Shown here piece by piece: positions 35,531 to 41,523 of a DNA stretch of 64,000 nt. Source of the DNA: Promethearchaeota archaeon (lineage in GTDB: Archaea > Asgardarchaeota > Lokiarchaeia > Sigyniarchaeales > SOKP01); NCBI GenBank assembly GCA_019057795.1, contig JAHLWS010000079.1, positions 36,155 to 100,154 of the forward strand. Direction: 5' to 3'. The position numbers were made by a program, and so were the translations under genes. Positions within the stretch are counted from its first letter, which is position 1; every line of letters begins with the position of its first letter. Under the pieces are notes generated by a model that saw nothing but the letters and a program-made list of their open reading frames with translations, searched no databases and was not told the DNA's origin.

Positions 35531-35808
35531 TTAATAACGTTTTGATCTATAATCCTCGCGCGGTCCTCTTTCGACTATAGTTAAGTCAGTTGCTTGAGGC
35601 CCTTTCTGGCCTTCTGTGATCTCAAATTCTACGATATCACCTTCATAGATGATCTTAAATTCGTTATCATCTCCTTTGATTGCTGAGAAGTGAACGAATA
35701 TATCACCCGAACCATCTTCACGAGTTATAAATCCAAATCCTTTTCTAGAGTCTTTCTTTATAGAAATTCTTTTCTAGAGTCAAACCATTTTACGGTTCCT
35801 TTTACCAT
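35531..35808 (-). CDS. csp: Cold-shock domain protein (82 aa once the 29-nt insert is removed), not in ORF track
   Basis: [13 protein letters not shown]|[21 protein letters not shown]...GQKGPQA; intact RNP1 and RNP2; the unspliced frame stops after 16 aa. Confidence 0.9.
35743..35771 (-). other. Candidate 29-nt BHB (tRNA-type) intron in csp mRNA
   Basis: CU-CUAG-AAA-AG on both strands forms h-B-H-B-h'; closing UUUCU/AGAAA hairpin; canonical cuts remove exactly 29 nt and restore the frame. Confidence 0.65.
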
Positions 35809-36274
35809 TGAACTTACACTTATGTTTTTATTATGTTTACCAATATATTATATACTTTTAAAGCAAAGTTTTTTAAAATTTTTTAAAGAAACTTTTGTTA
35901 ATAATAGTAGTAAAAGATAAAAAATCTTCGCTTTTTAAAATGCTGTAATTACAAGTAAACAAATTGAAAACTCGTTTTGTGATTTTGATCTTAAAAAATA
36001 TATTTAAAAACTGACTGATTTACTTCTTGGTCATTGGAATCCAATTGTTGAAAACTTCTTAGAGATTCTTGGATTAATTTGAAATCAATATCAATTTTCT
36101 GATTTAAATGTTTAATTGTCATAATAAGTTTAATAAAGAAATTTTGCATTAATTTTTTATTTTCAAAAATTACTATGGATGGTTTTGATAAAATATTAGT
36201 GAAATACGAATGTATTGATAAATTAAATGGTGAAAGAAGGAAATAACAACTAGATATTATTAATTACTTACTTA

Positions 36275-37933
36275 TTAAAATTCTTTACAGATCAAATATA
36301 ATAAAGTAGAAATTGTATCGTTTGTACAGTCTATTATTATGTTCTTATAGTTTTCCTTCCAATTTGGAGTTTTATATTTTGTAATAAATCTTTTATTAAT
36401 TTTTTCTTTAATTTTTGTCCTTGACCAACTAGGAAATTGTTTTTTAATAATATTTTCTTCAATATATTTCAAACTTTTATCTTGTATCGCTAAATCCTCT
36501 GCTAATTCAATTAATCTTCGTGTTTTAATTCGATTCTTTGTATAAAATTCCTTTATTTCAAAAGAATCTGTAAAGAAATTAGAAAGTTGTTCTAATTGAA
36601 AAAAATCACTTTTTCCATAAGAATATAACTTAAAACCTTCGTATGTCGCAAGTAATTCATTAAATAAGTCCAGTTGATTTTGATAAAAATCTAAGTCAAA
36701 ATTTAAACACTCAAATTTGATAATCTTTTTCCTAAAAAATTCACAATCTTCTTCGCAAAAATGACAAGGGAGAGTAAATATATTAACATTGATGTCAAAT
36801 CCTTTTCTAATACCTTTCCATATAATATTAGTTATGATACAAGGAAAATTAAAAATTCGTTCAATTTTACCATTTGGATAACAAATATGGGTATATTCAA
36901 CATCAAGAACTAAAAATCTTGATTTTTTGAATTTTTCGAAATTAAATAAAGTTTGGTTTTCATTAAGAAAGTTTCTTAGAAATTTTTGTGTTTCTTTGAT
37001 TACTTTTTGTTTAATATCTTCAATATCCCCCTTATAATTAGTTAAATACTTTAGATTTAGCTTTTGTTCTTCATTAACATTATATTGCTCCAAATTATCC
37101 CTATTCGATATTAATAAAAACAAACGGATGAATTCAAATATTAATTTCTTTTTTATAAAATATAATGCTTTTTCTTCATATCTAAAGTAATCTTCAGATT
37201 CAAATGGATTAAACTCATTAATTAATTCGTAACATTGAGAGTACCAGGGCTCCGAATTCAGAGGATTTAAATCATTTATATTAAAGATACCTCTCAAAAA
37301 TTTACTGGATGAATCAACAAAAGGGAAAAAAATGGAAGGTAATAAATCCCCCTTCATAAATTTTAACTGAATATTAGGTAAAACATTTTCAGTAATATAT
37401 TCTGTTTCTTCGAAACACCATAATTCTAAATTTTTATGTTTCTTTAATGTGTCTATCATTATTTTTTCAAGATTTTGGCAAAAACAATCATCTGGTATAC
37501 CAAAAATAGAACAGTATAGAGGAATTTTTTCGAATATTTTATATACAAATCCATTTACTTCGACAAAATATCTTGCACAACCTGCAAGAGTACCAAAAAT
37601 ATTTTTCTCAATTCCTAATTTTTTTTTTTTTGAAATATTATTTTCTTGATTAAATTTTAACGGTAAACATTTACCAGGATGGATATCATAAATAATTCTA
37701 ATATTTTCTTTATTTTCCGCATATGAGATTGCCCAAAGAAATGGGATCTCATTAATTGGCTCATTATTTAATTCTTGATTTTTTCGGGGCCATTCTTTAG
37801 CTTTTATATGTGAAAGTATAGTGACGATTCCGAGTTTATTTTCATAAAGGTACTGAGCTATCTCTATAAGTGAAAATATTTCTTTTAAATCTTCTAAGAA
37901 TCGTTCTTCTTTTTTTAAATCAATTTTTATCAT
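36275..37933 (-). CDS. Protein with C-terminal DEDD/RNase-H-like 3'-5' exonuclease domain
   Basis: VLDVEY (ExoI), SYGKSD (ExoII), SLK and CTND (ExoIII); N-terminal half unrecognised. Confidence 0.55.
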   Translation of the reverse strand: MIKIDLKKEERFLEDLKEIFSLIEIAQYLYENKLGIVTILSHIKAKEWPRKNQELNNEPINEIPFLWAISYAENKENIRIIYDIHPGKCLPLKFNQENNISKKKKLGIEKNIFGTLAGCARYFVEVNGFVYKIFEKIPLYCSIFGIPDDCFCQNLEKIMIDTLKKHKNLELWCFEETEYITENVLPNIQLKFMKGDLLPSIFFPFVDSSSKFLRGIFNINDLNPLNSEPWYSQCYELINEFNPFESEDYFRYEEKALYFIKKKLIFEFIRLFLLISNRDNLEQYNVNEEQKLNLKYLTNYKGDIEDIKQKVIKETQKFLRNFLNENQTLFNFEKFKKSRFLVLDVEYTHICYPNGKIERIFNFPCIITNIIWKGIRKGFDINVNIFTLPCHFCEEDCEFFRKKIIKFECLNFDLDFYQNQLDLFNELLATYEGFKLYSYGKSDFFQLEQLSNFFTDSFEIKEFYTKNRIKTRRLIELAEDLAIQDKSLKYIEENIIKKQFPSWSRTKIKEKINKRFITKYKTPNWKENYKNIIIDCTNDTISTLLYLICKEF

Positions 37934-37942
37934 AATTATCTC

Positions 37943-39019
37943 TTAAAATAATTCTATTCCGAATTTACCACTCCCAAACTGAGATGGATCAATTCCTTGA
38001 GATTGCATTGATGGAGATAATATTTTTCTATTTTGACAGAAAGCATTATTTGAATCACTATATGAACAAGGTGAACATTCATCACAAAGGCAATCTCTAA
38101 TGCTAATAGCAAAATAATGTCCTAATGAATAAAGCATTTGGTGAATTTTTTTTAAAGCAATGTTATATCTGTATTTTTTGAATTTGTTTTTTTTCCAAAT
38201 CCATATTACGGCATTCTCCCACATTTTTAAATCAATCTTTTTTGAATAAGGGGGACAGGAAAATGTTTTTCCGTAGGATTTACAACTTTCTCTACATAAT
38301 GGATCTATTACTTTTATTTGATCTATTTGAATAATTTCAATTTTTTCATACAATTTTGGATGATCCTTAACAAATTGATTACAATATTCTTTAATTTCAT
38401 CAAAAGATGCTTGTTGAAAAATCTGATTGGAAGGATTTTTAATATGATAAATTTCAGATAAATTTTTATCGTTTGTGAAAATACATCCGCATCTATTTAA
38501 TGAATGAGCATCAGTAAGTTGAAAATCAAATCCAGCTTTAGTAAGTGTTTTAATACAATCAATCTGTACAGCTTCCATACTTATTTGTTTTAATGATGGT
38601 TTTTTACATTTCTCACCTTTTATACTTGAACAAGGTCGGCATTTCTTACATGAACCTCCAGAAAATACTACATTCTTATGCCCATTGAAACTAATTAGAT
38701 TATTAAGTTGTTGTGAAATTCTTTGAATTTCATATTCTTTTTGATTATTTAGAAATCTTAATTTAAATCTGGAATCTTCTTCATTGAATCTATATGAAGT
38801 AGCGAACAAAATTACCCATTTATAACCATTTTTCTTAATTTTTTTGTATTCAGAAAGGGAATAAGGAGGGCAAGAGTATTTTCTATTAAAATTCTTACAC
38901 CCAAATTTGCAAAAATACTTTGCTCTCTCATCAAAAATAATCTCATTAAATGGAACAGATTTAATGAAAGCAATATTGCTTTTATTAAAATAATTTTCAA
39001 CTTGATTCTTAAGATTCAT
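37943..39019 (-). CDS. Tandem DUF2284 metal-binding protein
   Basis: Two copies of C..(G/S)C..(F/Y)....SCPP, each followed by CxxC..C and SM...(G/Q)ID. Confidence 0.75.
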   Translation of the reverse strand: MNLKNQVENYFNKSNIAFIKSVPFNEIIFDERAKYFCKFGCKNFNRKYSCPPYSLSEYKKIKKNGYKWVILFATSYRFNEEDSRFKLRFLNNQKEYEIQRISQQLNNLISFNGHKNVVFSGGSCKKCRPCSSIKGEKCKKPSLKQISMEAVQIDCIKTLTKAGFDFQLTDAHSLNRCGCIFTNDKNLSEIYHIKNPSNQIFQQASFDEIKEYCNQFVKDHPKLYEKIEIIQIDQIKVIDPLCRESCKSYGKTFSCPPYSKKIDLKMWENAVIWIWKKNKFKKYRYNIALKKIHQMLYSLGHYFAISIRDCLCDECSPCSYSDSNNAFCQNRKILSPSMQSQGIDPSQFGSGKFGIELF

Positions 39020-40143
39020 TATTGATCACCTAAAAGATATTTAAAACAATTAGGATCAGGGGAAAAATAAATCAATTCTTCTAGATCTTTTGGTTCTATA
39101 TTAACTTCTTGACATAAAATTCTTTGAGCTACACATTTACCCCTGCATTCTTCAATATACTTACAACTTTTACATGGTTCATTAATTTTTTTATATCCTT
39201 CCATAACAAAATTCCTAAATAATTTAAAATTTTTAGAATACCATATCTCTTTAAAATTTTGGCTATATATATTGCCCGCATTAAATTTTTTAAGATTTTT
39301 CCAAGCTGGACACATAACAACATCTCCATCTGGAAGTATTAAAGGTGCATCAAAACCTCCTCTGCAATAATGGGTCTTCTCTAAATTAAACAAATGTTCT
39401 TTATTAAATAATAATAAGAAATTAATGGGATGTCCAATCCTAATTTCAATTTTTTTTTGTATTTGATTATTCTCGAGGATTGAAATCAGTTTTAAAGTTA
39501 ATTCTTTAAACTGCCGTTTATTAAGTATAAGTTTTTGATCATTACCTCTACCTTGAGGTACAAATCTTAAGAAGTGAATTTTTAGAAATCCTTTTTCAAT
39601 ACAAAATTTAATAATTTCTTCAAGATATTTAAGATTCTTTTTGAAAGGTACTATGTTTGCTTCATAAGAGAGATTATTTTTTCTTAATTTATCAATAGAA
39701 TCTTCAATAAGATTAAACGAATTTTTAACTCCATTTATTTTTTCAATAAGCTCTTTATTATGTCCTTGAATATTTAAAATAATAGAAATTCTATCCTTAT
39801 ATTGAGATAAATAATTGATTATATGGTCATTTAAACTAGATCTATTATTTTTTTTATCAATAATTATTCCCGAAGTATAAATTATGATAGAAATGTTTAG
39901 ATCTATTAAAAAATCAATCAATTCTTTAAATTTGGGGTATAAGAAAGATTCTCCTCCAGATAAAGAAACTGTATTTATCTTAAATTCATTTTTTACTTCT
40001 TTTATGATCTTAGCTAATTTTGAAAAATTAAGAAATTTATCCTTTTTTAAACTAGAATTACTACTACAATAGACACAGTGAAGTGTACATTTATGTGTTA
40101 ATTCAATACTTAATTCATTTAAACTATTTGTTATTCTATACAT
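39019..40143 (-). CDS. Radical SAM protein with SPASM domain
   Basis: CTLHCVYC and SGGE; CRGG, DGDVVMCP, CKSC...CRGKC and DPNC SPASM motifs. Confidence 0.9.
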   Translation of the reverse strand: MYRITNSLNELSIELTHKCTLHCVYCSSNSSLKKDKFLNFSKLAKIIKEVKNEFKINTVSLSGGESFLYPKFKELIDFLIDLNISIIIYTSGIIIDKKNNRSSLNDHIINYLSQYKDRISIILNIQGHNKELIEKINGVKNSFNLIEDSIDKLRKNNLSYEANIVPFKKNLKYLEEIIKFCIEKGFLKIHFLRFVPQGRGNDQKLILNKRQFKELTLKLISILENNQIQKKIEIRIGHPINFLLLFNKEHLFNLEKTHYCRGGFDAPLILPDGDVVMCPAWKNLKKFNAGNIYSQNFKEIWYSKNFKLFRNFVMEGYKKINEPCKSCKYIEECRGKCVAQRILCQEVNIEPKDLEELIYFSPDPNCFKYLLGDQ

Positions 40144-40325
40144 CTCGATTCTAACCACTCTTTATCTCTTTTATAGGCTTTTGGATTAATATCTTCATCA
40201 TCAACTCTAATAAAGAGACTTAAATCATCATTACCACAATTTAAACATTTTGAAATTAGGTGTAATCCTTCGGAACCACTATATACTTTATTACACTTAA
40301 GACATTTTAAACCCAATTTAATCAC
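40131..40325 (-). CDS. 64-aa zinc-ribbon/Cys peptide
   Basis: CLKC and CLNC; overlaps both neighbouring genes. Confidence 0.7.
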   Translation of the reverse strand: MIKLGLKCLKCNKVYSGSEGLHLISKCLNCGNDDLSLFIRVDDEDINPKAYKRDKEWLESRCIE

Positions 40326-41089
40326 CTTATATATTTTTTTGGAATTTCATCCAAAATATTTTTAGAATATATATTAGAATTATAAACTTTATGAATTAAA
40401 TCATACATATTTGATTTTGGATTCTTTTTCTTATATCTTTCATTATATCTGTAGAAATAACATTGCTTATTTTTAATACAAGTTTTGCAAAAATCTTTCC
40501 ATTCATCCATTTTTTTTTCATCCTTAAATAAATGAACTAGTTCAAGTGTCTCTTTTTGGTATAAATCACTATAATCTTCATCCTTACTCTGAATTCTATT
40601 AAGAAAATTATTTAATTTTCTATTCCATTTTTCGAGATGCCATGATACATTATGACCTATACCAATCGAATTATCTTTGAAAATAATTTCTCTTCTTTTT
40701 AATAAATGTATCTCTGATGCTTCAAATCCACATACAAATCCATTGTTATTAAATATTTTAGTCTCTTGATAATAGGTCTTACCAATTTTATAATATCCAA
40801 TGATATATCTCTTTTTTGTATTTTGATCTTGAGTTCTAAATATTATATATTTTTCATTTGTATCTCGCTTAATTAGACTCCTTACGCCTTTTAGATTACA
40901 GATTGAATTATAAGTATGGTTTTCAAAAACAGGAAATTCAAAATGGATTTTACCATCACTAAGTTTAAATAAAAATAGATTCCGATGAGCGAGATCATTG
41001 GATATATTAATAAAACATCCTTCTAGAAAAACTCTAGTTGAATAGTAATTAAACAAAACAATATCTCTATCGTAGTTGATATTTAACAC
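40322..41089 (-). CDS. Hypothetical protein, Nmad2/3-like (nucleotide-modification-associated)
   Basis: P.FE..TY...C....R, YIIFRT and RYIIGYY pattern; C-terminal CKTC...C; family call is from recall only. Confidence 0.4.
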   Translation of the reverse strand: MLNINYDRDIVLFNYYSTRVFLEGCFINISNDLAHRNLFLFKLSDGKIHFEFPVFENHTYNSICNLKGVRSLIKRDTNEKYIIFRTQDQNTKKRYIIGYYKIGKTYYQETKIFNNNGFVCGFEASEIHLLKRREIIFKDNSIGIGHNVSWHLEKWNRKLNNFLNRIQSKDEDYSDLYQKETLELVHLFKDEKKMDEWKDFCKTCIKNKQCYFYRYNERYKKKNPKSNMYDLIHKVYNSNIYSKNILDEIPKKYIR

Positions 41090-41523
41090 CGCTTACCGAA
41101 GATTTTTACCTTAATACTATATATCCTCATTTAATCATTTATATTTATTGCATAATTTAAAGAAAAAAAAGGTTAAAAATTAAACTAGTTAAACAGAAAT
41201 AATAAAACGAATAAAACTAAATTTAATTTATTTAAATTTAAAGATTGTAAAATTTTTTCCAATTCATCATAATAATTTGAATCTAATGGGAACAAGAGCT
41301 AGCATATAAACATCCAATAAAATTTTATATTCGATTAAAGCACATATCTATATCTGTACTCTTCACTTTAGAATTAGATACCATATATAATAAATTTTGT
41401 TAAATTTTGTTAAAAAAACACTATTAGAGATAAGATTTTTTGTAGTTTTTTAGCCTATATTTTATTTTTAAATATCAATTGAATTTTAAAAGTTATAAGT
41501 GAGATTTGATTTAAATATATATT

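Follow-up and report, generated by a model that had tools for sequence, protein, structure and literature searches.

The 64,000-nucleotide stretch of DNA analysed here (hereafter the window) lies on contig C79 (JAHLWS010000079.1) of the 4.95-Mb genome of a Loki-type Asgard archaeon (G000) and contains a single-copy cassette of five co-oriented open reading frames (ORFs), g1 to g5, which run along the minus strand from position 41089 to 36275 with ends that overlap or nearly abut. The first gene, g1 (41089-40322, minus strand, as for all the genes and domains below), encodes a protein of 255 amino acids (aa) with a predicted N-terminal PUA-like domain (YTH/ASCH/EVE type) of ~175 residues, followed by a helical domain that carries the motif C201-x2-C204-x5-C210. 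Next come g2 (40325-40131; 64 aa), with a CxxC...CxxC zinc ribbon, an acidic stretch and a C-terminal (K/R)EWLES motif, g3 (40158-39019; 379 aa), a radical S-adenosylmethionine (SAM) protein with a full SPASM domain (CX3CX2C plus seven auxiliary Cys), and g4 (39019-37943; 358 aa), a tandem of DUF2284 repeats, each with a Cx3Cx8C(P) and a Cx2Cx2Cx7-9C motif. The last gene, g5 (37933-36275; 552 aa), combines an orphan N-terminal domain with long helices at its end (residues 1-335, positions 36929-37933) and a PolB/YprB-like DEDD 3'-5' exonuclease domain with an inserted Cx2Cx3Cx11C cluster (residues 337-552, positions 36275-36925). Overlaps of 4, 28 and 1 nucleotides join g1 to g2, g2 to g3 and g3 to g4, respectively, the second being reduced to 13 nucleotides if g3 begins at the ATG of its 374-aa database form, and a gap of 9 nucleotides separates g4 from g5. 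Non-coding gaps border the block, one of 466 bp to its left (35809-36274) and one of 434 bp to its right (41090-41523), neither with a conserved ORF; all that the left gap contains is a 52-aa ORF (35991-36149) that is not conserved. The GC content of the cassette is 0.248, against 0.322 in the rest of the window and 0.314 in the genome, where 1.5% of the equal-sized windows are as GC-poor, and its GC content at third codon positions (GC3) is 0.15-0.18. An earlier note, made from the sequence alone, had described a tightly overlapping, AT-rich block of five genes with non-coding borders of ~450 bp and Cys clusters in every product; our ORF check agreed with it in every detail checked, and alignments showed that the Cys clusters are conserved in all five products.

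Two sister genomes of the same genus (G241, locus L062, and G233, locus L063) share the flanks of the cassette at 90-96% nucleotide identity in blastn and local alignments and lack the cassette itself, their csp and alpha/beta-hydrolase genes being 190-290 bp apart. Homology with the window ends at ~35963 (G233) and starts again at ~41325 (G241) or ~41431 (G233). As the site is empty in both genomes, the ~5.4 kb found here between the csp and hydrolase genes (35964-41325) are an insertion, which comprises the five genes plus their non-coding ends and nothing more. A search of its ends revealed no terminal repeats, target duplication, integrase or tRNA. Its AT-rich upstream non-coding part (41090-41325, minus strand), presumably the promoter region of the operon, has no similarity to the rest of the genome or to other loci, and the non-coding ends match nothing else; a sigma-70 promoter scan of this region was uninformative because the model does not apply to archaea. 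The empty site shows that the cassette is horizontally mobile and was acquired by horizontal transfer in this Asgard archaeon, as the earlier note had suspected. These near-identical genomes with and without the cassette also provide a natural and direct comparative test. In the left flank, the csp gene (35531-35808) carries a 29-nucleotide insert that is missing from the csp genes of G241 and G233, to which it is otherwise ~93% identical. This insert is bracketed in the window by the 12-nucleotide direct repeat TTTTCTAGAGTC and is separated by only ~150 bp from the point on the left where the inserted cassette segment starts; besides its reading as an intron, an origin by duplication should be considered.

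A search with g5 recovered 41 protein clusters at 90% identity. The gene was present in 37 metagenome loci and in seven loci of species-representative genomes (Promethearchaeota, Borrarchaeota, Thermoplasmata, Methanobacteriota and Methanoregula, plus a fragment in a Dehalococcoidia bin), and cassette records came also from Methanoperedens and Methanosarcinaceae. Of 400 Asgard genomes, just 3 carry g5, and all 41 other genomes of this genus lack it. Searches with all five proteins (tblastn) retrieved the order g1-g2-g3-g4-g5 wherever enough sequence was available, with 16 complete loci and many partial ones, and the five genes co-vary in how similar they are to the window copy (identity, rho 0.42-0.83). 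Since the same genes occur in the same order in so many loci of other archaea, the set is a unit far beyond chance, and the co-occurrence on which the earlier note had made its reading depend is thereby established. Flanking ORFs barely recur and the flanking genes differ in nearly every locus, so that the module is self-contained; a comparison of flanks between loci revealed no conserved sixth gene. A few loci are rearranged. In L013 and L022, g5 directly follows g3, and in the former a divergent DUF2284 gene comes after g5, so that DUF2284 stays in the rearranged cluster. L031 and L033 show a g1-g2-g5 arrangement, with a g3-like radical SAM/SPASM gene located in L031 downstream of g5 in convergent orientation (opposite strand). 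The g2 gene directly follows g1 in all 21 loci that have g1, even in L031 and L033, which have no g3 next to it.

The g1 protein had no match in Pfam at E<=1. Based on its structural model, the N-terminal domain is assigned a PUA-like fold of the YTH/ASCH/EVE type, the most conserved loop (residues 48-65) being the part that is modelled least confidently (pLDDT 51-76). The C-terminal domain is an orphan domain. The earlier note had likened g1 to the PUA-like Nmad2/3 domains; the PUA-like part of that claim held, but membership in these families did not. The Nmad2 (PF18753) hidden Markov model (HMM) matched nothing in G000, the Nmad3 (PF18754) HMM matched two other genes of this genome and missed g1, and profile comparison of g1 with these two Nmad3-like genes by hhalign gave probabilities of 5% and 0.4%. 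Only a 28-column 'IIGYY' hairpin was aligned in the 5% case, and this hairpin probably prompted the Nmad suggestion of the earlier note. By the HMMs and the profile comparison, g1 is rejected as a demonstrable member of Nmad2 or Nmad3. One of the two matches in G000 is a true Nmad3 protein (192 bits), encoded on contig C33 in a small island (L078:564-6924) together with several unknown genes and a 605-aa protein that looks DUF262/GmrSD-like by eye. The other match is weaker; its gene is on contig C13 (L079:5110-5934) beside that of a 1110-aa protein. Both places may be further loci for nucleotide modification or restriction in this genome. As for g2, an alignment of 22 distinct orthologues is conserved over the whole length, with the CxxC...CxxC motif, the acidic stretch and the EWLES tail, a pattern that reads as a zinc ribbon without any leader/core split.

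The identification of g3 as a radical SAM/SPASM protein was confirmed by Pfam matches to both domains (Radical_SAM PF04055, 1.5e-21; SPASM PF13186, 1.7e-12) and by the invariance of all ten cluster Cys (C24/C28/C31 plus C265, C283, C329, C332, C338, C342 and C371) in 27 sequences. Its best NCBIfam models were MftC (101 bits against a cut-off of 265, 6e-29) and PqqE (97 against 381, 8e-28), with WgkB and NirJ2 also among the nearest; all scored far below their curated cut-offs (MftC, PqqE and NirJ2 at a quarter to a third of them), and we therefore rejected g3 as an equivalog of PqqE, MftC or any other named SPASM enzyme. The best sequence match in the PDB was likewise PqqE (6c8v, 4.7e-8), and SkfB structures matched as well. 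With a radical SAM core that begins at residue 18, g3 has no room for an N-terminal RiPP recognition element (RRE; RiPP, ribosomally synthesised and post-translationally modified peptide), and no PqqD/RRE family of Pfam or NCBIfam matched any cassette protein. A role as RRE-dependent RiPP maturase was consequently discarded, given the lack of a recognisable RRE/PqqD partner and of a leader-core structure in g2. The PADLOC models of prokaryotic viperins (pVip) matched g3 at ~1e-10, and viperin structures matched residues 18-102 only; g3 is not a prokaryotic viperin, since these matches are confined to the radical SAM core and g3 carries a SPASM domain.

Beyond the cassette orthologues (>=44% identity), the g3 family continues into a tail of relatives at 31-42%, some of them (31-39%) fused to other domains. 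P0238 (31% identical to g3) has an N-terminal MazG/dUTPase-like nucleoside triphosphate pyrophosphatase domain (22.1 bits against a cut-off of 22), and P0214, P0215 and P0220 share a C-terminal domain of ~200 aa that matches only the phage families phrog_22490, phrog_1485 and phrog_27321. Viral contigs encode full-length relatives (27-32% identity) within nucleotide-metabolism and replication modules (NrdD, ThyX, YfbR, NUDIX, RecA and glycosyltransferases). On one IMG/VR contig (L068:646-2924), a radical SAM/SPASM gene with 32% identity to g3 stands directly before the genes of a DEDD exonuclease (Rv2179c-like) and an anaerobic ribonucleotide reductase, a second and independent adjacency of radical SAM/SPASM and DEDD genes. 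These fused and viral relatives provide weak but concordant hints of nucleotide or nucleic-acid chemistry for g3.

The g4 protein matched Pfam PF10050 over two stretches (127.6 bits against a cut-off of 25, 5e-37), and its repeats scored 94.3 and 42.4 bits in a search of the genome for DUF2284. At least 14 of its Cys are at least 95% conserved in 28 orthologues, and both repeats keep all seven Cys, so that the double DUF2284 announced by the earlier note consists of two intact repeats. A sequence search found no solved structure for this family, and the literature on DUF2284, COG5423 and PF10050 yielded table entries only. G000 has two further, stand-alone DUF2284 genes. One of them (186 aa), in a cluster at C82:125536-129127 (L080), lies between two genes for URO-D-family methyltransferases and one for a B12-binding corrinoid protein. 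Corrinoid methyltransferase systems need a low-potential reductive activator, and the context of this gene suggests for DUF2284 the role of their partner in redox or activation. This corrinoid-cluster context and the ferredoxin-type Cys motifs suggest that DUF2284 is an iron-sulfur (Fe-S) electron-transfer protein.

The C-terminal domain of g5 is a DEDD (DnaQ-like) domain with an RNase-H-like fold, PolB/YprB-like, as supported by the fold and by four invariant acidic residues (D344 and E346 of the Exo I DxE, D443 of Exo II and D539 of Exo III), which bears out the exonuclease assignment of the earlier note. In its Exo III motif (C536-x2-D539), position 535, where the PolB Tyr is expected, is variable, and there is a Tyr (Y529) ten residues upstream. 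Foldseek and VIA structure matches cover residues 309-552 only. The N-terminal domain has conserved Cys residues (C89, C119, C141 and C150) and the motif YCS-FG-PDDC. It found nothing in Pfam, NCBIfam, PADLOC, PHROGs, PDB sequences or the Atlas and showed no relation to g1, and among 1.84 billion representative proteins a profile search retrieved only 25, all of its own family or fragments of it, so we classify it, as judged from these comparisons, as an orphan domain.

We found defence genes close to several other copies of the cassette. L006 has a STAND-type nucleoside triphosphatase upstream and PglZ (BREX-type) downstream, L011 has a PLD-ResIII-DUF3427 helicase-nuclease together with HNH and PLD genes, and in L031 a 5-hydroxymethyldeoxyuridine (5-hmdU) DNA kinase gene adjoins the cassette. 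The 124 flank ORFs of 13 further loci include Holliday-type endonucleases (4), NERD (3), UvrD (3), HNH (3), integrases (2, in two flanks), PDC-S41 (3), AbiO (3), as well as EcoRII-C, BglII, Type ISP, Type IIG and Type I restriction-modification (R-M) proteins; nucleases, helicases, R-M enzymes, integrases and PADLOC candidates are their commonest families, and R-M, BREX-like and Gabija-like genes are present in many of the flanks. A family of 484-557-aa proteins is encoded directly beside the cassette in three otherwise unrelated loci (L008:4861-6534, L025:6122-7576 and L039:5202-6698); its L008 member has no Pfam domain, and the family may correspond to the PADLOC candidate PDC-S41. The cassette itself matched no system model: in PADLOC-DB v2, g1, g2, g4 and g5 hit zero families and g3 gave only the generic pVip core match, a negative result that the earlier note had expected for a novel system. 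Neither g1 nor g5 had a match in 2.9 million IMG/VR contigs, g5 had none on PLSDB plasmids, and g3 had only one weak match in GenBank phages. We retrieved no description of a combination of PUA-like, radical SAM and exonuclease proteins in defence, or of EVE plus radical SAM, from the literature searched on these topics and on Asgard defence systems, and a 2014 paper on archaeal 'dark matter' mentions only a different radical SAM arCOG. The statement that no named system has this composition thus holds for PADLOC, virus contigs, plasmids and the literature searched.

We tentatively favour, at somewhat less than an even chance, the explanation that the five genes form one autonomous, mobile, nucleic-acid-directed module, most likely for antiviral or anti-plasmid defence of anaerobic archaea. 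That the system is directed at nucleic acids is very probable because of the PUA-like fold predicted for g1 and the DEDD fold of g5 with its invariant D-E-D-D residues; we further infer that the substrate of g3 may be a nucleic acid or nucleotide and that the role of the system may be antiviral. Under this explanation, g3 would use radical chemistry to modify a nucleotide, or a base within DNA or RNA, with g4 and its four Fe-S-type Cys motifs as its dedicated low-potential electron donor. The predicted pocket of g1, whose PUA-like fold recurs in YTH/EVE/ASCH domains and in the N-terminal domains of archaeal McrB, would hold a base and distinguish marked from unmarked nucleic acid, with the zinc-ribbon protein g2 as its constant partner, the DEDD domain of g5 would degrade rejected nucleic acid in the 3'-to-5' direction, and the orphan N-terminal domain would serve for docking or regulation. 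Besides the folds of g1 and g5, this explanation is supported by the mobility, low GC content and patchy distribution of the cassette, by its fixed gene order, the co-varying identities and the independence from neighbouring genes, by the conflict-type neighbours of other copies, by the hints from the fused and viral relatives of g3, and, for g4 as redox partner, by its Cys motifs, the corrinoid context of the stand-alone gene and the DUF2284 gene kept in L013. Radical SAM enzymes that act on DNA are exemplified by gp53 of phage M6 and spore photoproduct lyase (PMC8989533). The cassette would then belong to a known kind of systems, the modification/reader/nuclease conflict systems, and is undescribed in the literature searched. 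It is possible, if rather doubtful, that no earlier immune-type system has had at its centre a SPASM radical SAM enzyme acting on DNA, RNA or nucleotides; here this enzyme would be joined by a private Fe-S reductant, by a YTH/EVE-like reader that stands alone and, as effector, by a proofreading exonuclease of the PolB type.

Several observations weigh against this defence module. The characterised SPASM enzymes that score closest to g3 (PqqE, MftC and SkfB) all act on peptides or proteins, and to our knowledge no SPASM enzyme modifies nucleic acid. A 64-aa protein rich in Cys and Asp/Glu is encoded immediately before g3. The MazG fusion of P0238 is a single borderline match in a relative only 31% identical. 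The fifth catalytic residue of g5 (Tyr or His) was not located, and L031 has no detectable DUF2284 gene. As for the genomic context, the tally of defence genes in the flanks has no matched background, and some copies have housekeeping surroundings: the window copy sits among csp, hydrolase and sulfur-relay genes and in no defence island, and the L009 copy lies beside Hdr-like redox genes.

The first two of these points lead to the strongest competing explanation, protein maturation within a nuclease complex, which we regard as unlikely. By analogy with QhpD on QhpC, anSME on sulfatases and CrpC on CrpA, g3 would be a SPASM maturase that introduces a cross-link or another modification into g2 or another Cys-rich protein of the cassette, with g4 as reductant, and the mature g1-g2-g5 complex would act on nucleic acid. 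The best relatives of known function of g3 (MftC, PqqE, WgkB and SkfB) do modify peptides or proteins, conserved Cys clusters occur in all five products, and g2 is small and overlaps the start of g3, with four Cys, an Asp/Glu-rich stretch and the conserved EWLES tail. Moreover, archaeal SPASM enzymes that modify whole Cys-rich proteins have recently been shown (PMC13692751). However, the four Cys of g2 form a canonical zinc ribbon, conserved throughout and without a leader/core split, and g2 keeps with g1 and not with g3 in L031, where g3 has moved to the opposite strand after g5, and in L033; g2 is therefore disfavoured as the substrate of g3. The absence of an RRE in g3 and of any RRE protein in the cassette, and the fusion of the g3 relative P0238 to a nucleotide-pyrophosphatase-like domain, argue in the same direction. 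Maturation of the small Cys-rich peptide, which the earlier note had kept as its alternative, is thus weakened.

The same genes could also carry out accessory repair or RNA/DNA modification instead of immunity, for instance against toxins or damage in anoxic sediments, with g3 reversing or installing a lesion, g1 recognising it and g5 trimming. We consider this improbable. The very patchy distribution (3 of 400 Asgard genomes), the insertion or deletion of the cassette between near-identical genomes and its recurrence beside restriction, BREX-like and helicase-nuclease genes do not speak for repair; patchiness, mobility and defence neighbours are better accommodated by a conflict system.

Another explanation would turn the module into counter-defence cargo, by which a mobile element hypermodifies its own DNA to escape host restriction. 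It draws on the 5-hmdU DNA kinase gene beside the L031 cassette, the integrases in two flanks and the use of radical SAM enzymes by phage hypermodification clusters (PMC8989533), but self-modification needs neither an exonuclease nor a base reader, the insertion in the window is a bare 5.4-kb cassette without element genes, and the absence of g1 and g5 from the IMG/VR contigs and of g5 from the PLSDB plasmids also runs counter to it. Such a role therefore appears very improbable. A RiPP or peptide-derived cofactor pathway, with g2 as precursor, g3 as maturase and g1, g4 and g5 as tailoring or processing enzymes, is the least probable explanation of all: it is recommended by the cofactor maturases MftC and PqqE as nearest NCBIfam models and by the small ORF directly upstream of the radical SAM gene, and is contradicted by g3 scores far under the cut-offs, by the conserved zinc ribbon of g2, by the nucleic-acid modules of g5 (intact DEDD site) and g1 (PUA-like fold), and by the lack in the cassette of any protease, transporter, RRE or PqqB/C/D- or MftB/D/E-type gene.

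If the cassette is a defence module, one of its closest known counterparts is modification-reading restriction with PUA-like sensors, such as archaeal McrBC with a YTH-like N-terminal domain and the EVE/SRA/ASCH-nuclease fusions (e.g., VcaM4I and PD-T4-3). In contrast with these systems, it has reader and nuclease on two different proteins, the latter is a DEDD exonuclease and not a PD-(D/E)XK, HNH or GTPase-driven endonuclease, and radical SAM/SPASM and double DUF2284 proteins are added as obligatory partners. With the pVips, which make 3'-deoxy-3',4'-didehydro (ddh) nucleotide chain terminators, it has in common a radical SAM enzyme, a defence context and a possible nucleotide substrate; however, viperins lack the full SPASM domain of g3, and pVips act alone or with a kinase. 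Dnd/Ssp phosphorothioation and Dpd 7-deazaguanine modification are modification-based defences with Fe-S proteins, and the cassette would resemble them in uniting a modification module and a discrimination/nuclease module on a mobile island. It shares no homologous component with them (PADLOC negative), and would differ by the SPASM radical SAM chemistry and the exonuclease effector. The pairs PqqE/PqqA, MftC/MftA and QhpD/QhpC include the best-scoring characterised relatives of g3 and find a parallel in the small Cys- and acid-rich ORF just upstream of g3, whereas the scores below cut-offs, the lack of an RRE or PqqD/MftB partner, the association of g2 with g1 and the nucleic-acid modules encoded by the remaining genes set the cassette apart. 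Finally, radical SAM enzymes act on DNA bases in the phage thymidine hypermodification clusters (5-HMUDK, aGPT-Pplase, the radical SAM isomerase gp53 and Nmad-domain genes; PMC8989533), to which the kinase gene beside the L031 cassette and the 'IIGYY' hairpin of g1, similar to that of an Nmad3-like protein of G000, also bring it close. Unlike these clusters, the cassette is chromosomal in archaea, was not found in virus collections (g1 and g5, IMG/VR) and does not itself encode a hydroxymethylase, kinase or Pplase; moreover, gp53 is photoproduct-lyase-like while g3 has SPASM, and g1 fails the Nmad2 and Nmad3 HMMs.

Should the defence function be correct, the combination of a radical SAM/SPASM enzyme with a base reader and an exonuclease would represent a new enzymatic logic for prokaryotic immunity and a new chemistry for self/non-self marking, in Asgard archaea and in methanogen relatives. 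It would also add to the archaea, which have few characterised defence systems, and to the Asgard lineage, to which eukaryotes are related; their readers of YTH type and exonucleases of PolB type have folds in common with g1 and g5. DUF2284, a widespread, putative Fe-S family without a known role, would receive its first functional context. Even if protein maturation were the true explanation, a radical-SAM-matured nuclease complex would still be unusual. In addition, the cassette defines two orphan domains, the N-terminal domain of g5 and the C-terminal domain of g1.

Two further observations concern the occurrence of the cassette. A Borrarchaeota metagenome-assembled genome (G305) contains two different copies on separate contigs (L003/L007 and L005/L010), with g5 proteins 42% and 41% identical to that of the window; either the cassette truly occurs twice in this organism or the bin is mixed. 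Besides, several ORFs of 137-182 aa (L047:4505-5053, L048, L049 and L012:6286-6699), one of them in a Dehalococcoidia bin, contain no more than the last ~150 residues of g5, without Exo I and with no other cassette genes nearby, and look like decayed remnants of the cassette.

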